64,000 nt of DNA from Bacteroidales bacterium. Lineage in GTDB: Bacteria > Bacteroidota > Bacteroidia > Bacteroidales > JAGONC01. Location of the stretch: positions 21,722-85,721 of the forward strand of contig DAOQWY010000008.1 in assembly GCA_035342335.1 (NCBI GenBank), in the 5' to 3' direction. Shown here one piece after another: positions 46,099 to 64,000 of the stretch. The first letter of the stretch is position 1; each line of letters begins with the position of its first letter. The notes beneath the pieces were generated by a model. It had not been told where the DNA came from and made no database searches. It saw only the letters and a program-made list of their open reading frames with translations. The position numbers were made by a program, and so were the translations under genes.

Positions 46099-47646
46099 TT
46101 ATTCGCTGTCGCCCAGGTAGTGGACAACCAGACGGTTGGAAACGCCGGGCCGCCCGATGGGTTCACCGAGCACAAATACGACAGCGTCCCCGGCCTTTGC
46201 CCATCTGCGCTGAATGAGCATTTGATCCACCTGCCGGATGAACTGACTTCCGCTTTTGGGAAGTTCCATATAGATGGGCATCAACCCGTACAGCAATGCC
46301 ATTTTCCTCAGGTCTTCCCTGTGGTTGCTGAATCCGAGGATGGGCAGCGGGATATGATACTGCGAGAGGTAAACCACATTTTCTGCACGATGGGTCCATG
46401 TAATAATCATTTTTATGTCCATGTCCTCTACGATGGTCTTTACTCCGTGGGCAATGGCGGCACTTTCCTTCCTTCCCTGCCGGAAATGGTGAGGCAGGGC
46501 AAGCGGGGCTGCGTGGTAACGCAGGTAATGGTTTGTTTTCTCGGTGACCCGGTTCATCATCCTGACAGCTTCCAGCGGATAATGTCCAACAGCCGTTTCC
46601 CCGGAAAGCATCACTGCATCCGCACCATCAAAGATGGCGTTGGCCACGTCGGAAACTTCAGCACGCGTGGGAGAAGGTGACTCGATCATGCTTTGCAGCA
46701 TCTGCGTTGCCACGATCACCGGTATCCCGTATTCGTGGCAGAGGTGAATGATCCTTTTCTGATGGACCGCCACTTCTGCCAGTTCCACCTCCACACCCAG
46801 ATCGCCGCGCGCCACCATCACCAGATCGGTCTCACGCATGATCTCTTCCAGGTTGACCAGCGCCTGGGGCTTCTCGATCTTACTGATCACCGGAATGAAC
46901 TGTGTGTCGCGCAAAGGATCTGTTTTGTGAGATCCCTGAGGCGTCCTTTCGGTCCCGGGTCTTTCAGATCTGGCGTTCAGCTCTCTCAGACGTTCTTTCA
47001 GGATATGGATGTCCTTTGCAGTCCTGACGAAACTTAAGGCGAGAAAATCGATCCTGTGCTCAACGGCAAAATCAATGAACCGGTGATCCTTTTCGGTGAG
47101 GGCCTCAACCGACAGGTCAGTATCGGGCAAATTGACTCCTTTCCGGGAAGTGATCAGCCCGGTATTCAATACGTTGCAAATGAGCCTCGGGGTTTCGCCG
47201 GGTCCTTCTTTTTTCTGTTTGCATACCAGTGCGATGGCGCCATCATCCAGCAGGATGCGGTGCCCCGGCTGCACTTCCCGTATGAATCCAGGGTAGTTCG
47301 TGGTCAGGATGACACGCGCTGCCTCTTCGTGGCAGATGGCCAGTTCATCTTCACTCACAAATTCAACGATCTTTGCCGCAGTCAACAAAATACCTCCCTC
47401 GGGAACTTCCCCGATACGGATCTTCGGACCGGACAGGTCTCCGATGATGGCTACGGGCATGTCAAGTTCAGAGCTGATCTGCCTGACTTTTTCAACCAAC
47501 GTGGCGTGGGTCTCCAATGATCCGTGGGAAAAATTCAACCGGAATGCATCCACACCCTCTGCCATCAGTTTTCGGATCATGGAAGGCGATTCGCTTGCCG
47601 GTCCCAGGGTTGCAATCACTTTTGTCAGGAGAAATTTCTGGCTCAT
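46099..47646 (-). CDS. pyk: Pyruvate kinase
   Basis: TKVIATLGPAS, RLNFSHG, SKIEKP, MVARGDLG, ATQMLQSM, MLSGETAVG. Confidence 0.97.
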   Translation of the reverse strand: MSQKFLLTKVIATLGPASESPSMIRKLMAEGVDAFRLNFSHGSLETHATLVEKVRQISSELDMPVAIIGDLSGPKIRIGEVPEGGILLTAAKIVEFVSEDELAICHEEAARVILTTNYPGFIREVQPGHRILLDDGAIALVCKQKKEGPGETPRLICNVLNTGLITSRKGVNLPDTDLSVEALTEKDHRFIDFAVEHRIDFLALSFVRTAKDIHILKERLRELNARSERPGTERTPQGSHKTDPLRDTQFIPVISKIEKPQALVNLEEIMRETDLVMVARGDLGVEVELAEVAVHQKRIIHLCHEYGIPVIVATQMLQSMIESPSPTRAEVSDVANAIFDGADAVMLSGETAVGHYPLEAVRMMNRVTEKTNHYLRYHAAPLALPHHFRQGRKESAAIAHGVKTIVEDMDIKMIITWTHRAENVVYLSQYHIPLPILGFSNHREDLRKMALLYGLMPIYMELPKSGSQFIRQVDQMLIQRRWAKAGDAVVFVLGEPIGRPGVSNRLVVHYLGDSE

Positions 47647-47657
47647 CGTGTATCAGT

Positions 47658-50285
47658 CTAATAAAAAACAACTTCAACATCAGGTCGCAGACCTCTGAAT
47701 TTGGCTACCTTCTTCTCATTCAGTTTCGAATTGTAACATCGGATGATCTTCAGATTGGTAAGTTCGACCAATTCATTCAAACTTCCTACCGATGTATTGT
47801 AAAAATCGAACTCGGTAAGATTTGCAAGGGTTGAAATCCATTTCAGGTTTTTGACCGGCGTTCCCGAGATGTTCAGGTATTCCAGCCCGGTGAGCAGTGC
47901 GGCCAGTGTGTAATCCGAAACCTGCGTGTCCGAAAGGTCAAGGTGCTTCAGGGATGTCAGCGATGCAATGTGCGCTAGTTCACTGAAAGGACTTTTCCTG
48001 CAGATCAGTTTTTCGAGGCGGCTGGCATCCTTGATGGGCATCAGGTCCGTGATCCGGGTCTCGCTGATGATCAGGCTTTTCATTCGTTTTAACATTCCAA
48101 GCGGTTCAATGTCCTGAATTTTCATCGTATTCTCAAGGATCAGCTCTTCCAGGTTCATTACCCTGTGCAGTTCTTCCTTCCCCGGAGGATCGTCCAGATC
48201 AAGTGCATCCAGGAATATGCTTTTCCACTCGTCAGTCAATCCATCCCACCACTTCTGCAACCGTGGTGTCATATAGATCACCTCGCAAATGGGTTTGCTG
48301 TCCATAAATGAAAAAATTTCATCCTGGCCCAGTTCAGTCTGATCTGCCCGTACCATGCTCAGTTTTTCAAGACCGGTCAGGGACTGAAGGGATGTGACGC
48401 GGGTGTTTTCGATGTTCAGTTCAAGGAGGTTATGAGCCTGTGCAAGCGGCTCCAGATCGGTGACCTGTGTATCGGAAAGGTCCAGCCGTTCGATCATCCG
48501 CAGGTTTCGCAGCGGTTCGATGGTGGCCACCTCCGTTCCAGCCAGACACAATGCCCTCAGGTGAATGCTTCTTTGCAACGAATCCAGGGAACGGACAGGC
48601 GTACCGGAAATGTCCAGATCGTCGAGATTGATCAGGACGGAAAGAGGATCCAGCGTGGTGATCAGACTGTCACCTTTTAGTTGCAGTTGCCGGATCAACG
48701 TGATCTGGTGCAGATCCTCCTTCTCGGGTTCTGCTTCCAGGCCAATCTGCTCCGCAAAGAGTTCCTTCCACCGCTCATTAAGGGAATTCCACCATCGGGT
48801 CAGTTCGCCTGTTTCATAGATAACCAGGGTAGCGGGTTTACTGATCATGAAAATGTTTGCTATTTCGCCGGTCACCTTGCTGTGATCACAGTAAATGCGT
48901 TTCAGCTCAGGCAACGGGAGAAGGGGATCCAGGTTGTCGACAGGGGTGTAGTCCATGTACATATACTGCAGCGCGATGAGCCCTCTCACCGGCTCAAGGT
49001 CCCCGATCATCGTATTGCCAATGTTGAGATAACTGAGCTCTGTCAGGTTCCGTACAGGCTCCAGGGATGTCACACGGGTATTGTAGGACAGATCCAGCCG
49101 GGTCAAATGGGTGAGAGTCTGAATAGGTTCCAAGTGGGCGATGTCTGTGTTATGGCAAAGGAGACTTGTAAGTTCCCTTAAATCCGCAAGGGGTTCGAGA
49201 CTTCGTACCAGTGTCTTGCTGCAATTGAATACCTTGAGCTTCTTAAAGCCTGCGATGGTATTTAACGTATCAATCTGCGTATCCTCTATGTTTAAATCGC
49301 TCATATTCAGTGAGTAACGTAGTGGTTCCAGGGAGCTTACGGGTGTTGCTGCGCAATTCAGATGCTCCAGTTTTGACAGGCTGCGCAGGGGAGTGAGGTC
49401 CTCAATGGCAGTCTGCGAAAGGGAGAGTGACTTCAGCCGGGTCAGTTTTTTGAGCGGTTCGAGGTTGTTAATCAATGGATTACCGTCGAGGCTGATCTTT
49501 TCAAGTGACCAGATTTGCCTGATGCTTTCATAGATGGGACCGGTGTTGATGAAGAGCGTATCCAGAAGGGGATCCAATGGGTCCGGTTGTAAAACGACGG
49601 CCGAATCATCAAAGGCGATGACGTGGTGCAATGGAGTGGATAGGGGTTGACTGATCTCTTTGGAAAAGACTTCTTTCCATTCGACGGGAAGCCGCGACCA
49701 CCAGTTGGCCATGTCTTCATTTTCACTCAGCTTTGTTGTATAGATGCTGGCAATCTTGAGATCTTTCCGGTCCTGATCCAGGTTGATTTCCATGAAGCGG
49801 ACCTGCGTGGTGTTGACGGTGCTGTCATCAATGGTTTCGGCGTGTAAATTCCGGTTGAGGGAAACCCTGAAATAGATCTGGCCTTCTTCGTTCACTTCAG
49901 GTGAGATCTCTTCGATGGTGAATGTAAAAACGACCTGTTTGAAAAAGAAATTGATGTCTTTCAGGTAAGCCTGAACATTTTTATTGGTCACTACCTGCCG
50001 GTTTTCATCCAGATCATCTTCGATCTGGACTTTTTCATCGCGAAAGAATTTCAGGTAGCTTTCATTGATGATAATGTCTTTTTCCCGGATGGTGACCGTA
50101 GGATCACCCAATGTATTGAAGGCCGATTCGACAAAATGAACCATCTGCCTTACCTGCACTAGGTAAGATTCCATTTCCTGGCCGGTTTCTTTTACGTGGG
50201 TGTTTACCTGTGCTGAGGCAGGGAAAATAAAAAGGATGCAAATCAGGATCAATCCACAGAGCGCAGAAAGTAGCTTTTTACTCAT
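47658..50285 (-). CDS. Exported leucine-rich-repeat protein with an N-terminal non-LRR domain and three WW-capped LRR modules
   Basis: Signal peptide; internalin-like LxxLxLxxTxIxDLxPL repeats; three WWxxLxxxWKxxF caps. Confidence 0.88.
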   Translation of the reverse strand: MSKKLLSALCGLILICILFIFPASAQVNTHVKETGQEMESYLVQVRQMVHFVESAFNTLGDPTVTIREKDIIINESYLKFFRDEKVQIEDDLDENRQVVTNKNVQAYLKDINFFFKQVVFTFTIEEISPEVNEEGQIYFRVSLNRNLHAETIDDSTVNTTQVRFMEINLDQDRKDLKIASIYTTKLSENEDMANWWSRLPVEWKEVFSKEISQPLSTPLHHVIAFDDSAVVLQPDPLDPLLDTLFINTGPIYESIRQIWSLEKISLDGNPLINNLEPLKKLTRLKSLSLSQTAIEDLTPLRSLSKLEHLNCAATPVSSLEPLRYSLNMSDLNIEDTQIDTLNTIAGFKKLKVFNCSKTLVRSLEPLADLRELTSLLCHNTDIAHLEPIQTLTHLTRLDLSYNTRVTSLEPVRNLTELSYLNIGNTMIGDLEPVRGLIALQYMYMDYTPVDNLDPLLPLPELKRIYCDHSKVTGEIANIFMISKPATLVIYETGELTRWWNSLNERWKELFAEQIGLEAEPEKEDLHQITLIRQLQLKGDSLITTLDPLSVLINLDDLDISGTPVRSLDSLQRSIHLRALCLAGTEVATIEPLRNLRMIERLDLSDTQVTDLEPLAQAHNLLELNIENTRVTSLQSLTGLEKLSMVRADQTELGQDEIFSFMDSKPICEVIYMTPRLQKWWDGLTDEWKSIFLDALDLDDPPGKEELHRVMNLEELILENTMKIQDIEPLGMLKRMKSLIISETRITDLMPIKDASRLEKLICRKSPFSELAHIASLTSLKHLDLSDTQVSDYTLAALLTGLEYLNISGTPVKNLKWISTLANLTEFDFYNTSVGSLNELVELTNLKIIRCYNSKLNEKKVAKFRGLRPDVEVVFY

Positions 50286-51105
50286 GGTAAATGAATTTCA
50301 GCATCAGTTCTTTTTCATCAGGTGATATCCTGAGGAGATTGGCTATCAGCCACCCTGAATTTTTGGATTTTCGGTTGAAGTCAACCAGTTCAAAATACCA
50401 TCCGGGGACTTGGAAAAAGTGAAACTTAACCTGCTGAACGGTTTTAAAGGAGAGGTTTCCATTCTTCACTTCATAAATGAAAAGGGTCAGAAAATCCGGG
50501 TGGTACTCACGGGAAGTGTACAGCTCAACTTCATCTTTGTTCTTGAAAACGTGGATGAGGTTCATAAAGTCGAGCTCGTGGCTCAAGGGATGAAGAAATT
50601 TGAGCTGGTCAGGAGCGGAATTGAAAAAAAGCTTGCTGAATGGTTCGAAATAGATATTGGTAATCACCCACTTTGATCCAACCTTTTCTTCCTGAAGCTG
50701 GAGAAAAAGGGTGAGCGGTACTTCACTGCCGTGATAGAAAAATTTGGTTGCGACCTCGGCAAACCAGTCTCCTCCGTGAAAGTCAAGATATACCGGTTTG
50801 TTCCCGTTTATGACGGTATGAATGAAGTCCTGCCGGGCAAGGTCGGTAATGGCAGGATTTTCATTGTCAAAGAGGACCGATAGATATTTGCTTCGAAGGG
50901 TGGGATCCCTGTAAAGCGGGTTTTCCGGGTAGATCCGCTGCCCATCGAGGTTTTCCTCACAGTTGAAACGCCGAAGGAACTGGTTCACCTGTTTGGTCTG
51001 GGCCATCAGGATCTCCTCATCACCCAGGTAATTACCTATGGATTGCGCCGGCAGATCCGGCGCAATCCATAGTATCAACCAACCAACAAAAAGGATTTTT
51101 CTCAT
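50278..51105 (-). CDS. Exported hypothetical protein
   Basis: Signal peptide MRKILFVGWLILW; start overlaps the upstream stop (ATGA); KQVNQFLRRFN, HPLSHELDFM, FHFFQVPGW. Confidence 0.8.
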   Translation of the reverse strand: MRKILFVGWLILWIAPDLPAQSIGNYLGDEEILMAQTKQVNQFLRRFNCEENLDGQRIYPENPLYRDPTLRSKYLSVLFDNENPAITDLARQDFIHTVINGNKPVYLDFHGGDWFAEVATKFFYHGSEVPLTLFLQLQEEKVGSKWVITNIYFEPFSKLFFNSAPDQLKFLHPLSHELDFMNLIHVFKNKDEVELYTSREYHPDFLTLFIYEVKNGNLSFKTVQQVKFHFFQVPGWYFELVDFNRKSKNSGWLIANLLRISPDEKELMLKFIYHE

Positions 51106-51677
51106 GGCAAGGTTTCGGTCACCCTGACATCGCCCAGCAGCACATCCCAAAATCCGATCAGGCGTCCTCCGATCTGGGTCTGTTTACGCTCCACATAGAC
51201 CGTAATATCCTTTTTTGTGGTATCCTTATAGACCAGCTGATCGCCTGTAATCCCCTCAAACCGCTGAAAAATGGTGATCACCCCCACGAAACGCCCATCC
51301 GGCTGCTGTTCCAAATCGCTGATATATTGAATGTTAAACCATTGGATCTTCACTTTGTCGTAGTTCAGCTGCATGAGCCGTTCCAGGTATTCCCTGATGC
51401 CGTAATATTTGACTTCGTCGAGGAACAACGATGAAACACCCATCTGGCTTCCGGGCATGAACAGCTCCAGGGTGCGCTCTATGACCCGGTTGGCTTCCGA
51501 CCAGGGCGTTTCTTTGTCGCCGATGATGCTGATGTATTTGCTCAGGTCGCGAACTTTCTCAAGGGCCAGGGAATCAATGGCGGCCTTTCGTTCGGGACTG
51601 ATCTCAGGCTGTGCAGTCGCTGGGGTTCCCCAAAATGCCAGTCCAATGGCAATGAACAGAATTTTTATGGGATTCAT
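51102..51677 (-). CDS. Exported hypothetical protein (predicted NTF2-like alpha+beta fold)
   Basis: Signal peptide; helices followed by long beta strands ending WDVLLGDVRV. Confidence 0.8.
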   Translation of the reverse strand: MNPIKILFIAIGLAFWGTPATAQPEISPERKAAIDSLALEKVRDLSKYISIIGDKETPWSEANRVIERTLELFMPGSQMGVSSLFLDEVKYYGIREYLERLMQLNYDKVKIQWFNIQYISDLEQQPDGRFVGVITIFQRFEGITGDQLVYKDTTKKDITVYVERKQTQIGGRLIGFWDVLLGDVRVTETLP

Positions 51678-51682
51678 ATTGA

Positions 51683-52387
51683 TTACTTTTTAATGAGTTC
51701 TAATTCAGTGATCAACCCTTCTTCATTGATTTTGATGTTGCTGATCCGGTTGATGTTGTTTTTGGTGTCGTCGAGATACTGCAGGTATTTCAGGATGGTG
51801 GTGGGCTCATCGTAATCGGTCATTCCGCCCTCCTGCGAGATGATGATCAGGACTGGAACGGATTCGCTGGCGAACATTTTCAACGCCTGGCTGATAAAAG
51901 TATCTGATGCGCTGTAATTCTTGTTGTTGACCAGGTCGTTGAAAAATCCTTCAAGTATGTCGGAAGTGCCGGCTCTTGCTGCTTCTTCAACCTCCTGTGG
52001 CGGGATCACCTGCTCAGGCTTCCTGGCCATCTCTTTTTCTTTGTTGATTTTTTGTTCGGCAAGATCAATCAGGCTATTGATTTCCGCATCCTGAAAACGC
52101 TGTGATTTGATTTCTTCGAGGGTAGCCTCTTTCGTGCTCAGCGGAAGGGATCCGTCATCATTGAGGATCTCCAGCAGCTGGCCTTTTGCCTTTAACAACT
52201 GGTCGGGATCATCGTGAACAGTGGTCACCTGCTTGGTCTTTCCCGCTTTTTTCTTACCTGCACATCCGCTGTTCCCTGTCATGACGGCACTGGCGAACAA
52301 CAGGATCAATGCATAGTAGAACAATGACCGTAAACGAATATGGACTTTGCGCGGAGGATTCATGGACGAAAAATTAAGTTGGTTCAT
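51683..52387 (-). CDS. Putative lipoprotein
   Basis: Hydrophobic segment then SG-C-AGKKK; helical region; C-terminal DYDEPTTILKYLQYL. TAGTTTTG promoter motif at 52428-52435. Confidence 0.75.
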   Translation of the reverse strand: MNQLNFSSMNPPRKVHIRLRSLFYYALILLFASAVMTGNSGCAGKKKAGKTKQVTTVHDDPDQLLKAKGQLLEILNDDGSLPLSTKEATLEEIKSQRFQDAEINSLIDLAEQKINKEKEMARKPEQVIPPQEVEEAARAGTSDILEGFFNDLVNNKNYSASDTFISQALKMFASESVPVLIIISQEGGMTDYDEPTTILKYLQYLDDTKNNINRISNIKINEEGLITELELIKK

Positions 52388-52508
52388 ACTAAAAACACAC
52401 AGGTATCCCTGCTTCAGGGAAGTTCCGCAAAACTACTAAGATAACGGAAAGAATTGATTTTATTGTATGGCAAAATAATAACCGGATGGTGTTAACAACA
52501 CGGCGTCC

Positions 52509-53612
52509 CTATTCCTCAAACACCTGACCGAAGTAATAGATCCGCGTGGTATTGGGCCCTGTTTTATACATGATCAGGTTACGGTTCATTTCAAGATCCG
52601 TCACCAGTTCATAGGTGACCACGTGTTTTTCACAATTCTGAACCACCTGGACATTTTGATTATCGTCAATATAAGATATTGAATTCCAGTCAAGTACATA
52701 TTTGTCCGGTACGTACCGTTCGATGATCTGAACCGTTCCATTGCAATGTGTTTTGAAATAACCCTGGTCGATAAAGATCATCGCTTCATCATTAACTTCA
52801 AAGTGTTCAGGCCGGTTCGGAAGCAGGGTGGTGGTGATGCCTTTGTTGAAGGATTTCAGGTTGCCCATGTCATCAACGTAAACCACCATGTCGTCTCCGA
52901 CTTCGAAGGCTTGCGGCCGGTAATATTCCAGTTCAAACACCTCGCCTTTATAAAAGACCTTGAAAATGTTCCGTGGTTCATCCATATAGGCAACGATATT
53001 TTTTCCTGTTTTGTAAGTGATGTATTCCCCGAATTCATCAATCACCCAGATATCACCAGCCCAGAAAACCTTGAATTTATTATCCACGGTCGTAACATAG
53101 GCAAGCGTATTATCGCCGCTTTTCAGGCGTTCGAACGGAAAGTCAAGCAATCCATCCTCCAGTGTCTCCGTTTTTCCTTTATAATAAATATTGACCGTCC
53201 TGCTGATCCGGTCGTACCAGGTGATCAGGCTGTCCTGAACCACATATCCTTCCACGGCCGTACAAAGTATTTTTATTTTACCGCGGTCGAAGACTTTCAA
53301 AAAATCCAGGTATTTGTATCCCAGCAGGTAGTCCGTGGCGTAATACCTCATACCGGCTCCTGCATTGTCCAGCTCATAGACCTCGCCATTGTAGTAGACC
53401 TTTAAACCCCCTGCATTGTCGATATAGGCTAAATGATTGCCCCCTACCTTATAGGACTGGATCTTGAGATTTTCCAGCTGTTCGGTCTTCCCTGCATCAA
53501 AAACATAAAAATGGTTCTGGATGTCGGAGAATGCCGCCAGGTGCTGCGCTACAAGACTGCCAGGTAAGATGTTGACAATGAGTAATATAATAAATAAAGT
53601 ATTTTTGATCAT
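52509..53612 (-). CDS. Exported beta-repeat (propeller-like) hypothetical protein
   Basis: Signal peptide; repeats of about 38 aa, G...AY.D....FKVFY.G....LE. Confidence 0.75.
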   Translation of the reverse strand: MIKNTLFIILLIVNILPGSLVAQHLAAFSDIQNHFYVFDAGKTEQLENLKIQSYKVGGNHLAYIDNAGGLKVYYNGEVYELDNAGAGMRYYATDYLLGYKYLDFLKVFDRGKIKILCTAVEGYVVQDSLITWYDRISRTVNIYYKGKTETLEDGLLDFPFERLKSGDNTLAYVTTVDNKFKVFWAGDIWVIDEFGEYITYKTGKNIVAYMDEPRNIFKVFYKGEVFELEYYRPQAFEVGDDMVVYVDDMGNLKSFNKGITTTLLPNRPEHFEVNDEAMIFIDQGYFKTHCNGTVQIIERYVPDKYVLDWNSISYIDDNQNVQVVQNCEKHVVTYELVTDLEMNRNLIMYKTGPNTTRIYYFGQVFEE

Positions 53613-55179: not shown

Positions 55180-55275
55180 ACAGGTTCACAGGTCTACAGG
55201 TCTACAGGTCTACAGGTCTACAGGTCTACAGGTCTACAGGTTCACAGGTCTACAGGTCTACAGGTCTACAGGTTG
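55180..55275. repeat. Octamer tandem repeat, 12 units (ACAGGTCT with ACAGGTTC/ACAGGTTG variants)
   Basis: Counted directly: nine ACAGGTCT, two ACAGGTTC and one ACAGGTTG. Followed by a heptamer tract (about 55283-55340). Confidence 0.95.
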
Positions 55276-55318
55276 ATGAAGGATTTCATTTTACATATTT
55301 CATTTTACATATTTCATC

Positions 55319-59976: not shown

Positions 59977-61176
59977 ATGTCCAAGATTAAACCGATACTT
60001 TTTACCAGTAAAAAACTTGCGAATGGAAAACATCCGGTCATGCTGCGGATCACTCACCATAAAGTTGGCTATGTAGCCATCGGTTGTTCCTGCCGTCCTG
60101 AAGAGTGGGATGATGAATATTCCCGCCTGAAACCCGGTTTTCCGAATGCCAAGAGATGGAATAACCGGATTTTATCCGATTATGCCCTGGCAGAGCAATT
60201 TATCCTGGATATGGAAGCCAAAGGAAAATCGTTCACTGTTGAGGATGTGGTTAAGCATTTACGCAATGATTATGAGGAGATTGGATTCATGAAGTTTACC
60301 CAGCAGGAAATCGACCGTATGAAAGAGGTCAATAAGCTGGGTAATGCAGCTGTTTATCAAATGGCATTGAGTCTTGTCAAGAAATTCAGGAACGAAAAGG
60401 AGTTCGTCTTTGATGATCTGAATTATACAATGCTCAAAGAGCTCGAAACCTTTTGTTATAAGCACAACAACAGTAATAATACCGTCTGTTATTATATGCG
60501 CACGATCCGGGCTATATATAACAGGGCAATAAAAGCAGGGTGTGCATCAAATGACCTGTATCCTTTCAGAACCTATAAGTTCAAATACATCAATCCCCGG
60601 AAAAGGGCACTGAGCCAGGATGAAATCCGCATTCTTAAGAATAAGAAACTCAAAAAGGGCTCGGAACTCTGGCATGCCCAGAACCTTTTTTTCTTCAGCT
60701 TCTATTGCATGGGTATGAACTGGACGGATATGGCCCGGTTGAAAGTCAGTAATATCAGGAATGGCCGGATCTACTATAAACGGACCAAGACCGGCAGGGA
60801 ATATAACATTAAGATATCCGATCCCATAAAGAAGATCCTTTCACACTATTTGAATGGTAAATCAACAGACGATTACATATTTCCCATCATATCCCGGAAA
60901 GATAGCCATGAGCTGATCAGGAAGGATATAACGCTTCATATGCAATGGTTCAATGATACATTGAAGGATCTGGCCAGTACCTGCGGCATCCAGACCAACC
61001 TGACCTCCTATGTTGCACGGCATTCCTGGGCAACCATTGCCAGCCGGAAAAACATCAACATTGGCATCATCAGCGAAGGATTGGGCCACAGGGATATCAA
61101 AACCACCCAGACCTACCTGGCTAATTTTGGGAGTGATGAACTGGATGATGCCAATGATATAATTATTGATATCTGA
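59977..61176 (+). CDS. Site-specific tyrosine integrase (Bacteroidota type with arm-binding N-terminus)
   Basis: NGKHPVMLRIT arm domain; YMRTIRAIYNRA SAM-like domain; RTKT, YVARHSWA, LGH, TTQTY. Confidence 0.93.
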   Translation: MSKIKPILFTSKKLANGKHPVMLRITHHKVGYVAIGCSCRPEEWDDEYSRLKPGFPNAKRWNNRILSDYALAEQFILDMEAKGKSFTVEDVVKHLRNDYEEIGFMKFTQQEIDRMKEVNKLGNAAVYQMALSLVKKFRNEKEFVFDDLNYTMLKELETFCYKHNNSNNTVCYYMRTIRAIYNRAIKAGCASNDLYPFRTYKFKYINPRKRALSQDEIRILKNKKLKKGSELWHAQNLFFFSFYCMGMNWTDMARLKVSNIRNGRIYYKRTKTGREYNIKISDPIKKILSHYLNGKSTDDYIFPIISRKDSHELIRKDITLHMQWFNDTLKDLASTCGIQTNLTSYVARHSWATIASRKNINIGIISEGLGHRDIKTTQTYLANFGSDELDDANDIIIDI

Positions 61177-61195
61177 CCGCCTGATCCTCTGATCA

Positions 61196-61499
61196 AAAAA
61201 ATTTTCTTGCATTTTGTCCTGTGCTTATCATGATGTTATTCAGCATGTTAAATTAAATCCTGATTTCTTTCTGAAAATCTCGGTGAGTTTTGTCGGCAAC
61301 TTAAATTTCTCTTACTGTACCGGATGCTCAATACTTTACTATTTCCAAATAAATCTTGTTGCATTTTGTCTGTAACTTATGTCACTGTATATCTGTATAT
61401 TAGATTCACCCCCTATTATTCCTTGAAAATCACGGTGCATTTTGTCCCTGACTTAAATCCCTGTTTATCTTCATATTAAGTTAAAAATGAATTTTTTAT
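61196..61499 (+). repeat. Four degenerate direct repeats with an exact 76-bp period
   Basis: TTTTGTC-N5-CTTA begins at 61212, 61288, 61364 and 61440. Confidence 0.85.
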
Positions 61500-61509
61500 A
61501 AAAATTAAA

Positions 61510-61538
61510 ATGCTGTTAAACAGCATCTTATTTTTTTT
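61510..61538 (+). terminator. Possible intrinsic terminator after the repeat array
   Basis: ATGCTGTT-A-AACAGCAT inverted repeat followed by CTTA and a T8 run. Confidence 0.5.
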
Positions 61539-61646
61539 CATTTGTCCTCTGAATGCTTTTCGTTGCTTTTGCTTGTCCTTTTTTGCCCAATAGTACTCCA
61601 ATAGTTTTGCTTCCATAATCTTTTTAATTCATTAAAATCTGACAAA

Positions 61647-61961
61647 ATGGAAGTAATTACAATTGAATCCAAGGCTTTTCTTGAGCTTATGAAGAAGCTC
61701 GAAGAAATTGAGACCAGAGTCACCGAAACCGGCCAATCTGATCCAGAGATCCTTCAGGGTAAAAAAGGAACCAAAGAGGCATGGCTTGATAATGATGATG
61801 CATGCCATTTATTAAGAGTCAGTAAGAGGACCCTGCAGAACTACCGTGACAATGGAACCCTGCCCTTTTCCAAGTTTGGCAATAAGATCTATTACAAGGC
61901 CGCTGACATCGAAAAGCACCTGAATAAACACTATGTCAGAGGCTTCAGGACGGCTCGATAA
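61647..61961 (+). CDS. HTH_17 / MerR-like excisionase-family DNA-binding protein
   Basis: MEVITIES...WLDNDDACHLLRVSKRTLQNYRDNG.LPFSK.GNKIYYK. Confidence 0.9.
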   Translation: MEVITIESKAFLELMKKLEEIETRVTETGQSDPEILQGKKGTKEAWLDNDDACHLLRVSKRTLQNYRDNGTLPFSKFGNKIYYKAADIEKHLNKHYVRGFRTAR

Positions 61962-61989
61962 TATTGTCAAATCAGTAAAATAACATTAT

Positions 61990-64000
61990 ATGACTGCATC
62001 TTATTGCGAACAGCGATTATCTGAGCTTGGAATCGCCCCTGAACACAATCAGATCCCTCTGGAATACGATAGCGAACGGCAGATAATCTATGGATACTCG
62101 CCTCAGCAGGCCACATTCTTTCAGAGTGACCGGAAAGATAATATCAGGATCAACTATGTGACGTTGGAGGGGAATCTGGCAGACTTTGAGAACCAGGGCA
62201 AGCTGCAGGATTATTACCGTACCAGGATCCACCCGGACTTAGTCAAGGGGGATGCCAAATACATGAGCCCTAAAGGATCGAAAAGCTGCTTCTTTTATCC
62301 CCCTCTCATTATTAAATCATTCAGGGAACATCTGCCGCTTCATACCCTGGGTGTCGTGGAAGGAGAGTTCAAGGCTTTTAAAGCCTGTCTGCACGAAATT
62401 CCGGTTGCAGGTATCCAGGGGATCCACAATTTCAAAGACCGGGAAACGCTGGATCTGCCTGAAGACTTCAAAGATCTCATTAAGCGCTGCCAGGTCCGCA
62501 ACCTGATATTCCTGATGGATGCGGATTGCATTTCGGAAAAGTACGTGCAGAACAATTACCCCAGCAAAGACCTGTTCATCCGGCTGAACTCTTTTTATAC
62601 GGCTGTCAGGGCGTTCAGGGAGTTGAGCAAGGAATTTGAAATGGATGTGTACCTGGCCCATATCCGGGCAGAGTTTGAAGAAACGGCCAAGGGACTGGAT
62701 GATCTGCTGGTCCTGATGAATGGCAGGGAACAGCTGGTCAGGGAGGATTTGATGGCATTGACCAGGGCAAAGGATTTCTTTGAGATCATGAATATCTCCG
62801 ATTTCTCTCTGTTCAAAATTAAAACTCATTTCCTGCTCAGTGAAGATAAGAAGGGGCGGCCCGTTCTATTCTACGACCGGTTTAAGCATATCCTCGGGGA
62901 AGAGCCCTTCACGTTCAAATTCAGAAAATGGCAATACAAGGGGGGAGATCTGATGAACCTGGACGGTAATACGACTACTATAACAACTAAACCTGGGGGT
63001 GATTTCGTGTTTCGAAAGGATCTCCAGTTCTGGCAGGAAAAATCGACTAAATCAGGAGATAATTACCTGATTGATTATAAGTTTGATTATTACAATGCCT
63101 ATCAATTTTTAACAGCCAATAATTTTTACCGGTTTCGTAGGATCGGCAAGGAAAAGGACAAGGATTATGTATATGTGAGGATTGAAAATAAGATTCTCAC
63201 AGAAGTACTTCCCTATATGATGAGGGATTTCCTTGTAAGCTTCGTGAAGACCCTGAATAAGAAAGACCTTCTCAATATGATTTATAAAGGATGTGGCCAG
63301 TACCTCAATGAACCATCTCTTTCAAATATCGACCTGATCCAACTCGACATTGTCAGAAGCGGACCCGATTTTCAATATATGTTTTTCAACAATTTTGTCT
63401 GGAAAGTATCCAGTAATGAAATTGAGCAAATCCCTTATGATTCTTTTGAGGGCTATATCTGGAGGGAGAACGTCATAAATTTTTCACCGACACTCGTGGA
63501 GCCATTATTTAATGTGGACTTCGAAAGCGAAAAATTCCATCTTTCCATCAATGACGATCATGATTCTCATTTTCTCAGGTTTCTTTTAAATACCAGCCGG
63601 ATGTACCATAAAGTCGAAAACAGCATGTTAACCAATGAAATGAAATACGAGGAGGTTGTTCATTTTTTGAATAAAATCTCAGCCATTGGTTACCTGCTGC
63701 ACAATTTCAGGAATGACAGCCGGACATGGGCGGTTGTGGCCATGGACAACAGTATCTCAGAAGTAGGTGAAAGCAATGGAGGAACCGGTAAATCGTTGCT
63801 GGGATTTGCTTTTGATGAGGTCTGCAAAAGTATCTACATTGAGGGAAAATCCAAAAAACTGACAGACAATCCACATATCTGGGCTCTGGTAAATGAGCGT
63901 TCAGATATGATCTTTATTGACGATGTACGAATGGATGTTGATTTTGAATTCTTTTATACCGTAATCACCGGTAAGGTTAGTGTGAATCAAAAGAACATTC
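61990..64000 (+). CDS. Primase-helicase fusion (DUF3854/TOPRIM-like plus P-loop NTPase), truncated at window end and absent from the ORF track
   Basis: Translated by hand from ATG 61990: KYMSPKG, VVEGEFKA, GIQG, LMDAD, KGLDD (TOPRIM); later GGTGKS (Walker A) and IFIDD (Walker B). No stop seen before 64000. Confidence 0.85.
   Translation, partial: MTASYCEQRLSELGIAPEHNQIPLEYDSERQIIYGYSPQQATFFQSDRKDNIRINYVTLEGNLADFENQGKLQDYYRTRIHPDLVKGDAKYMSPKGSKSCFFYPPLIIKSFREHLPLHTLGVVEGEFKAFKACLHEIPVAGIQGIHNFKDRETLDLPEDFKDLIKRCQVRNLIFLMDADCISEKYVQNNYPSKDLFIRLNSFYTAVRAFRELSKEFEMDVYLAHIRAEFEETAKGLDDLLVLMNGREQLVREDLMALTRAKDFFEIMNISDFSLFKIKTHFLLSEDKKGRPVLFYDRFKHILGEEPFTFKFRKWQYKGGDLMNLDGNTTTITTKPGGDFVFRKDLQFWQEKSTKSGDNYLIDYKFDYYNAYQFLTANNFYRFRRIGKEKDKDYVYVRIENKILTEVLPYMMRDFLVSFVKTLNKKDLLNMIYKGCGQYLNEPSLSNIDLIQLDIVRSGPDFQYMFFNNFVWKVSSNEIEQIPYDSFEGYIWRENVINFSPTLVEPLFNVDFESEKFHLSINDDHDSHFLRFLLNTSRMYHKVENSMLTNEMKYEEVVHFLNKISAIGYLLHNFRNDSRTWAVVAMDNSISEVGESNGGTGKSLLGFAFDEVCKSIYIEGKSKKLTDNPHIWALVNERSDMIFIDDVRMDVDFEFFYTVITGKVSVNQKNI

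Follow-up and report, generated by a model that had tools for sequence, protein, structure and literature searches.

The window, a stretch of 64,000 nucleotides from a Bacteroidales bacterium, contains a group of five genes on the minus strand, here designated A to E. Gene B (positions 51683 to 52387) encodes a lipoprotein of 234 aa, gene C (51102 to 51677) an exported protein of 191 aa predicted to consist of a single NTF2-like domain that includes a long, conserved beta-hairpin, gene D (50278 to 51105) an exported alpha/beta protein of 275 aa and gene E (47658 to 50285) an exported protein of 875 aa composed of a putative NTF2-like N-domain and blocks of leucine-rich repeats (LRR). These four are read in the order B-C-D-E and, as the initial annotation had it, are tightly coupled: a gap of 5 bp between B and C is followed by overlaps of 4 bp (C/D) and 8 bp (D/E). 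Ahead of them, at positions 52428 to 52435 of the minus strand, stands the TAnnTTTG box to which the initial annotation had already pointed; it is the sole minus-strand copy of the motif between positions 47600 and 53800. The motif is enriched upstream of B, occurring there in 52 of 71 related loci, whereas the opposite strand, taken as control, has it in 22 of 71. TAnnTTTG is the consensus of the -7 promoter element, and the box likely has this role in the operon B-C-D-E. In generic scans of the region neither sigma-70 promoters nor terminators rose above chance level.

The four genes from B to E make up a single conserved operon. Their order on a single strand was kept in 67 of 80 related loci, and 10 of the 13 others were truncated by contig ends. 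As exceptions, L083 showed no E and L090 neither D nor E within 10 kb; in genome G342 C was encoded on a different contig. An apparent D-E fusion at L017 crossed a run of N and was treated as an assembly artefact. Apart from B to E no neighbour family was found in more than 15 of the 80 loci. Among 61 relatives of the source genome, C, D and the N-domain of E were present in an identical set of 15, each in single copy. In comparison with three close relatives, all genes changed far less at non-synonymous than at synonymous sites and are thus under purifying selection. The distance matrices of B, C, D and E were correlated (r 0.62-0.72), a correlation that reflects only shared descent. In one order 66 of 201 genomes had a match to the C family; with these and the 15 of 61 relatives, the cassette is common in environmental Bacteroidota.

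Gene A (positions 52509 to 53612) encodes an exported 10-bladed beta-propeller of 367 aa which matches PF21734 (E 4e-84). The co-oriented beta-repeat gene of the initial annotation is therefore present, but it does not belong to the conserved unit: A lay upstream of B in only 4 of the 80 loci and was found in 7 of the 15 cassette carriers and in one non-carrier among the 61 genomes. It is a lineage-limited neighbour.

The products of all five genes possess one N-terminal hydrophobic stretch each, while every later segment has a mean hydropathy of 1.44 or less. Export signals had been claimed for all of them, and the hydropathy profiles from which we judged the N-termini bear this out. The product of B shows a lipobox with Cys42 (translation possibly starts at Met9), followed by a small N-terminal domain, a linker and a truncated NTF2-like domain at the C-terminus. 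As the Cys box recurs in 88 of 91 open reading frames homologous to B, the membrane anchor proposed earlier is supported. Lipoprotein export signals of Bacteroidota have an acidic pattern. According to PMC11885536, a lipoprotein export signal after the Cys leads to surface exposure of the lipoprotein. In the 88 homologues with a Cys box the acidic signal was absent: residues +2 to +7 had a net charge of zero or above in 88/88 and two acidic residues in 0/88. Furthermore, searches of Pfam and NCBIfam detected no C-terminal sorting domain of the type IX secretion system (T9SS) on the products of A to E. Because B has no acidic surface-export signal and the subunits have no T9SS sorting domain, B would face the periplasm.

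The initial annotation had recognised by eye a degenerate module common to the products of B, C and E, and the motifs it quoted are all present in the translations. BLASTP and phmmer gave no significant match between the three segments. With shallow profiles the pair B-C was significant (E 1.8e-6, 1e-5), C-E gave E values of 0.006 and 0.026, and B-E was on its own insignificant (0.012, 0.092). A deep C profile built from 147 sequences was then aligned by HHalign to the B-type domain (positions 51686 to 51982, minus strand, 99 aa) with a probability of 95% and an E value of 5.7e-8 over 66 columns, scoring 48.0, whereas shuffles reached no more than 38.0 and the reversed sequence 11.8. Its alignment to the full-length E-type domain (49716 to 50210, minus strand, 165 aa) had a probability of 78% and an E value of 1.8e-5 over 140 columns (score 37.3; highest of 40 block shuffles 19.4, reversed sequence 16.6). 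In other genomes the C HMM matches the E-type domain directly. By profile-profile comparison the three domains are paralogous, and the common module is confirmed with the qualification that the copy in B is truncated, its last long strands being missing.

The AlphaFold2 model of C (pLDDT 88.9) shows N-terminal helices packed on a curved antiparallel sheet, i.e. the alpha+beta cone of NTF2-like proteins. It matched 181 chains with Z>=8, and the alignment with 3rob_A (VIA-align Z 15.2, rmsd 2.4) covered 129 residues. C thus shares the cone, at Z scores of 12-15, with the NTF2-like superfamily, to which 3rob, LinA, scytalone dehydratase, the CaMKII hub, VirB8/CagV and the ARC6 IMS domain (PF13355) belong. 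The NTF2-like fold that had been suggested for the module is thus predicted for C from its model; for the C-domain of B and the N-domain of E it would follow from profile homology to C. The cassette differs from this superfamily in its sequences (2-18% identity to the matched structures, without a match in Pfam or NCBIfam or a significant one among PDB sequences) and in having three paralogous copies per operon, one of them truncated, together with a partner, D, that has no clear fold match. Pfam matches to B, C and D were absent at E<=0.1, the N-domain of E likewise matched no Pfam or NCBIfam family, and PDB searches with profiles of B, C, D and E gave no match below E 0.29. No curated NTF2 family (SnoaL, DUF4440, VirB8, ARC6 IMS, Imm-NTF2) recurred among 49 sequences of the C family or 50 of the E N-domain. 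In the Atlas the cluster of C is named 'putative NTF2 family' and the nearest Pfam entry, ARC6 IMS, is weak (0.76). Although the NTF2-like and LRR folds are old, the domains of the cassette, with 1294 clusters at 50% identity in the C family, are uncatalogued.

C is the most conserved member, with 67-99% identity across two orders. Its polar residues Y150, K156 and T189 are invariant and S82, Q138, D152 and T154 nearly so; they may indicate a catalytic or ligand-binding site. Since the best structural matches of C, such as LinA and scytalone dehydratase, are pocket-bearing, one might take the NTF2-like domains for enzymes or for binders of small molecules in the style of SnoaL or ketosteroid isomerase, acting in a common periplasmic pathway that does not require a single complex. 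The H-P-x-S-H-E motif kept in close homologues of D could be read in the same way. However, the low identity (2-18%) and the nearly tied top rows pick out no single enzyme family, the domain of B is devoid of the cone's final strands, B, C and E differ in their conserved residues, and no metabolic gene consistently adjoins the cassette. In distant homologues of D, moreover, the motif is variable at its first His and at the Glu, whereas 17 of 19 keep the second His. We therefore consider an enzymatic role decidedly unlikely. NTF2-like domains are also known from non-catalytic assembly roles, as in VirB8 and the CaMKII hub.

D, which had been left aside in the initial annotation, is a core member of the cassette and, found in just those 15 genomes of the 61 that have C, a core partner of C. 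Its predicted model (pLDDT 86.4) found no Foldseek match at E<=0.001; the best Z score was 4.9 and the weak rows were mostly NTF2-like, and no profile alignment between D and C was obtained. The fold searches thus gave no clear solved relative, which is no proof that the fold is new. The label 'YARHG domain-containing' given to the D cluster in the Atlas was set aside as it has no Pfam support, and an internal duplication within D was unsupported (E 0.028).

The remainder of E is made up of three LRR blocks (positions 47661 to 49715, minus strand), each opened by a WWxxLxxxW cap (at residues 195, 498 and 679) and closed by a hydrophobic C-cap. The repeats are 22 residues long, 17 of them being found by a simple pattern, and match LRR_4 (E 1.5e-45) as well as the models of internalin-type proteins, which also have 22-residue repeats. 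Scores are nevertheless far below the internalin cut-offs (149 versus 1050 bits), and E differs from internalins in the three separately capped blocks and the putative NTF2-like N-domain. A wall or T9SS anchor was not detected: E gave no Por_Secre_tail match at E<=0.1 and terminates in an LRR C-cap.

Because immunity proteins with NTF2 and LRR folds are known from polymorphic toxin systems (PMC3482391), also in Bacteroidetes and there for protein-protein binding, the immunity complex envisaged in the initial annotation deserves consideration. Such a cluster would neutralise incoming toxins in the manner of Imm-NTF2/Imm-LRR or act against phages. Concave LRR positions do diverge somewhat faster than the other LRR region (47-62% versus 59-72% identity), but purifying selection still acts on them (pN 0.21-0.35, pS 0.78-0.93). 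Unlike the variable poly-immunity loci, the exported cassette is single-copy, strongly conserved and fixed in order. Neither C nor 48 relatives matched Pfam Imm-NTF2, and none of the five proteins was recognised by PADLOC at E<=0.01. The neighbours of related loci vary and look housekeeping-like by eye, and no cognate toxin or recurrent toxin-like gene was seen among the clustered families. The immunity reading is unsupported and in our opinion highly improbable.

An accessory role in secretion (type VI or type IX), which had also been put forward initially, or in gliding is hardly better placed, and we regard it as very unlikely. It is true that SprA was found in all 15 carriers, that TssC or TssN was encoded within 5 of 39 hand-picked distant loci and OmpA-domain genes in 10, and that VirB8-like scaffolds appear low in the fold list of C (CagV, Z 12.1). 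Profiled across the 61 genomes, however, the cassette (15/61) tracks none of the marker genes: SprA occurs in 60 and GldD in 56 of them, most SprA genomes having no cassette; three carriers have no GldD match; and TssC is confined to one relative, itself a carrier, and is missing from the source genome. The products of A to E match no TssN/O/P/Q/R or Gld family. Like the assembly proposed below for the cassette, the TssNQOPR complex of T6SS-iii is a multi-subunit envelope complex specific to Bacteroidota, and homologues of it were undetected outside T6SS loci (PMC10781749). Some distant C homologues adjoin T6SS genes, but the cassette stands alone, with no Tss match and without TssC in 14 of 15 carriers.

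The 39 distant loci point to a wider family with a highly modular structure, in which C and D form the constant core; D was seen in 18 of the loci (none in the other 21) and an E-type domain in 23. TPR arms on the same domains occurred in 10, TPR replacing LRR in 9 of 15 E-like proteins scanned and at L095. The Sel1 proteins of L135 and L136 start weakly E-like (probability 45% and 17%). E-type domains thus carry interchangeable arms: LRR here, TPR elsewhere and probably Sel1. Caspase-like proteases were joined to the same domains in 11 loci. Five of these proteins, all encoded shortly upstream of the C gene, end in a domain of B length that aligned to C with a probability of 80% (E 1.4e-5) and to B with 33% (E 4.6e-4); PF00656 was found in 4/4 scanned. 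At six further loci a caspase-like domain was fused to C. A kinase and PP2C lay near C homologues in three loci; the kinase tail showed a moderate link to C (E 3e-4) and to B (score 19.65 versus a shuffle maximum of 18.6). Two other nearby kinases (L095, L144) and three PP2C tails were not B-type, and a candidate B-type tail on the DnaJ protein of L134 did not beat shuffles. B-type domains thus belong to an anchor in the operon of the window and to a caspase-like protease elsewhere, and perhaps to a membrane kinase too.

These fusions raise the possibility of a periplasmic sensor-effector switch, in which foreign or damaged protein would be sensed by the repeat arm and a protease or kinase be switched on as the NTF2-like domains cluster, the output for the operon of the window being encoded elsewhere. 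In the five B-tailed proteases the His-Gly and Cys motifs are retained, and most of these proteins have a signal-like start, in agreement with such a role. In the caspase domains fused to C, by contrast, the His-Gly motif was absent from the two in which the site was located, and the other four gave no match to the pattern. Only 2 and 1 proteins were recovered when the kinase tail and one caspase tail served as queries, and kinase, PP2C and caspase seeds matched none of the close loci L001-L090. The source genome, which is 100% complete, contains no match to PF00656 or FHA and no Pkinase above the cut-off, and a wide B profile found only B itself among its open reading frames. We consider the switch unlikely.

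Our preferred explanation, held with moderate confidence, is that the products of B, C, D and E form a periplasmic docking hub tethered to the outer membrane and presenting the three-block LRR arm. Lipoprotein B would anchor the hub in the outer membrane, facing the periplasm, and the NTF2-like domains would be non-catalytic assembly modules joining B, C and E. D would pack on C, and the arm of E would be held out to bind envelope proteins. As the operon of the window has no output domain, the hub would most likely serve to position the arm at the outer membrane. A hetero-oligomer is suggested indirectly by co-occurrence, by domain swapping in relatives and by P0126, a natural fusion in which the N-domain of B (E 5e-9), the C-domain of B (5e-27) and C (2e-72) lie on one chain; co-occurrence and fusion would also fit a pathway without a stable complex. 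If the docking hub is real, it introduces a new adaptor domain, points to partners for a large number of 'hypothetical' exported proteins and offers an assembly mechanism for exported bacterial caspase-like proteases.

Adaptor platforms such as the PIDDosome and the inflammasome are built on death folds, and the EAD concept has been applied to bacterial conflict systems. A bolder generalisation, which we think doubtful, would see in the cassette the LRR-armed, lipid-anchored member of a hitherto undescribed signalosome family in the periplasm of Bacteroidota. Its NTF2-like domain would be a homotypic, death-fold-like but extracytoplasmic adaptor, D a new fold, and the C-D core would link swappable LRR, TPR or Sel1 sensor arms to swappable outputs (caspase-like protease, membrane Ser/Thr kinase, lipid anchor). 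The likeness to death-fold platforms and to EAD-coupled conflict systems (PMC7159879), with repeat sensor, adaptor and caspase-like protease joined through one small common domain, is a functional analogy only. The NTF2-hub family differs in fold, in extracytoplasmic location and in having no NTPase, and the version in the window is without a protease. The four-gene unit falls outside every system considered, in agreement with the initial annotation, which recognised no characterised function. Searches of mainly open literature, main texts only, found no description of the cassette. Cultured carriers such as Flexithrix dorotheae (L071) exist, so the cassette is testable.

We regard the operon B-C-D-E as a real, conserved and uncatalogued system composed of known folds and one unassigned protein. 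On the minus strand of the window it encodes a 234-aa lipoprotein (B, 51683-52387), a 191-aa protein (C, 51102-51677), a 275-aa protein (D, 50278-51105) and an 875-aa protein (E, 47658-50285) with an N-terminal domain and three blocks of 22-residue leucine-rich repeats (LRRs). B and C are 5 bp apart, C and D overlap by 4 bp and D and E by 8 bp. Upstream of B lies gene A (minus strand, 52509-53612), encoding a 10-bladed propeller (PF21734). The products of A to E each have a single N-terminal hydrophobic stretch, with no further membrane segments downstream. Pfam at E≤0.1 gave nothing for B, C, D or residues 1-190 of E, and for the same proteins and the first 190 residues of E nothing came near any NCBIfam family cut-off. 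Literature searches, covering abstracts and passages of main text, found no description of the cassette. The A-B interval contains a TAnnTTTG box, the Bacteroidota promoter consensus. Of 71 loci, 52 have such a box ahead of B and 22 have one on the control strand.

The order B-C-D-E, noticed initially in the window alone, is kept in 67 of 80 loci, the best 80 of 220 relatives in GTDB contigs. Ten of the remaining 13 stop at a contig edge, the reading frames of L037 are broken and, within 10 kb, L083 is without E and L090 without D and E. Every other neighbour family is present in 15 or fewer of these best 80 loci, and the conserved unit is B-C-D-E. In the same 80, gene A adjoins B in 4 and a pyruvate kinase gene lies 3' of E in only 3; A is present in 7 of 15 genomes carrying the cassette. 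In the window the pyruvate kinase gene (46099-47646, minus) begins 11 bp past the E stop and may be co-transcribed with E. Profiles of C, D and the N-terminal domain of E matched the identical 15 of 61 relatives, one copy each, these kin not being independent. More widely, the C family occurs in 11 of 301 genomes across the phylum and in 66 of 201 genomes of another order, probably Cytophagales to judge from the named loci. Against three close relatives, at which synonymous sites are near saturation, all genes have far fewer non-synonymous than synonymous changes. The window's genome also encodes a distant C paralogue (G000:C12:44233-44739; L096:10219-10872, minus; E 1.5e-7) with a lipoprotein-like start, lying upstream of a carboxypeptidase-regulatory-domain gene and a probable two-component pair, with no adjoining D or E.

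The initial annotation proposed that B, C and E share a module. Pairwise sequence searches did not detect it, while shallow profiles linked B with C (E 1.8e-6 and 1e-5) and, weakly, C with E and B with E (E 0.006-0.09). A search of 1.84 billion representatives with the C profile gave 1294 clusters; the 150 listed yielded a deep profile of 147 sequences. HHalign aligned this to the N-terminal domain of E (140 columns; probability 78%, E 1.8e-5; score 37.3, with 40 block shuffles reaching at most 19.4) and to the C-terminal domain of B (66 columns; 95%, E 5.7e-8; score 48.0, with shuffles reaching at most 38.0 and the reversed control 11.8), the E-values being those of single comparisons. It gave no alignment with D. 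A 49-sequence C HMM directly matched E-type and B-type ORFs in whole genomes. By these sequence comparisons the domain is real, and the register first drawn by eye is consistent with the profile alignments.

The suggested NTF2-like fold is supported for C by its predicted structure. The AlphaFold2 model of C (pLDDT 88.9) resembles NTF2-like folds with Z up to 15.2, no one family standing out. The model of D is also confident (pLDDT 86.4), and its fold search gave no clear match (best Z 4.9). That the NTF2 domains are catalytic or ligand-binding seems to us improbable; we favour a putative docking module.

The LRR blocks of E each begin with a WWxxLxxxW cap (residues 195, 498 and 679), whose tryptophans are at least 90% conserved in 59 non-redundant homologues. 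They derive from the 69 matches, out of 84, that passed a completeness and 780-960-aa length filter, and any claim of fixed length is limited because the filter itself selected them. Against three close relatives, concave positions vary somewhat more than other LRR positions, though they are still constrained. No T9SS sorting domain was found on the cassette proteins.

We give about an even chance to a predicted hub in the periplasm that is tethered and holds out the LRR arm. C and D would form its constant core, E-type copies would supply the repeat arm and B-type copies an anchor or output. Lipoproteins without an export signal are treated as periplasm-facing in PMC11885536. Sequence features point to such an orientation for B in the window, because its post-Cys residues are positively charged and, of the 88 among 91 homologous ORFs that have the Cys box, none has two acidic residues there. 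Its placement in the outer rather than the inner membrane is an assumption.

Distant C homologues were surveyed at 39 loci, a non-random sample (L095, 36 hand-picked for long contigs and variety, and two plasmids). D was found in 18 of them, an E-type domain in 23; a TPR arm replaces the LRR in 9 of 15 scanned E-like proteins, and in L095. Some distant C homologues have no D or E beside them (L092-L094, L117, L139 and L143), and in the protein P0126 both B domains are joined to C in one chain. In five of the 39 a caspase-like protease, in most cases with a signal-like N-terminus and in all with a B-type tail, is encoded shortly upstream of C (L124:5330-6439, L125:5423-6574, L133:2831-3904, L135:2365-3468 and L142:3754-4896). 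All retain the His-Gly and Cys motifs; the catalytic dyad is given as His-Cys in PMC6426788. Their tails, of about 100 residues, B's length, give an alignment with C at a probability of 80% and E 1.4e-5 and a weak one with B at 33% and E 4.6e-4. Two of these loci also have Sel1-repeat genes. In six further loci, L127-L132, a caspase-like domain, apparently without the catalytic His, is fused to C itself, with no D or E alongside. One membrane kinase, encoded immediately 5' of C-D, bears a tail moderately similar to C (E 3e-4); B-type tails considered on two further kinases and on a DnaJ protein did not pass the similarity test. Word-based searches gave one match for the caspase tail and two for the kinase tail, so that such tails appear either rare or too divergent for this method. 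The proteases with B-type tails merit separate study. A sensor-effector switch whose output is unlinked is a rather unlikely reading of the cassette: the close loci contain no kinase, PP2C, caspase or TssC, and the window's genome gave no match to caspase or FHA and none to a kinase that passed the cut-off. Kinase with PP2C occurs in 3 of the 39 distant loci. Immunity is the least probable role considered; PADLOC matched none of A to E.

The initially suggested role as a secretion accessory is very improbable. TssC or TssN accompanies 5 of the 39 distant loci, but TssC occurs in 1 of 61 relatives and was not found in the window's genome, and SprA (60 of 61) and GldD (56 of 61) each occur in far more genomes than the cassette does. 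A kinase or T6SS setting is thus a feature of only a part of the distant relatives.

OmpA-domain genes occur in 10 of the 39. L118, L119, L121, L137, L140 and L144 have a long C variant, immediately after it an OmpA-domain (peptidoglycan-binding) gene, then an E-type gene; three of the six have T6SS-iii genes. In L144 (Runella rosea plasmid NZ_CP030851.1) the C homologue lies amid FHA, PP2C, kinase, caspase, VWA, WG-repeat and pesticin-like muramidase genes. L114:4275-18943 contains two C genes, D, an E-like gene, two Ser/Thr kinases, PP2C and three FHA proteins. Long C variants (P0137, P0143 and similar) share with the neighbouring L113:9296-10189 family an uncatalogued N-terminal beta-rich domain of about 180 residues, without a Pfam match.

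Elsewhere in the window, a short tandem repeat (about 55190-55290) lies between amylase-like and methyltransferase-like genes; translated in a spurious minus-strand ORF, it gives a repeated 8-residue unit. A stretch of lower GC content, down to 0.37-0.38 (59977-64000), begins at an ORF that looks integrase-like by eye (59977-61176) and probably marks the boundary of a mobile element.
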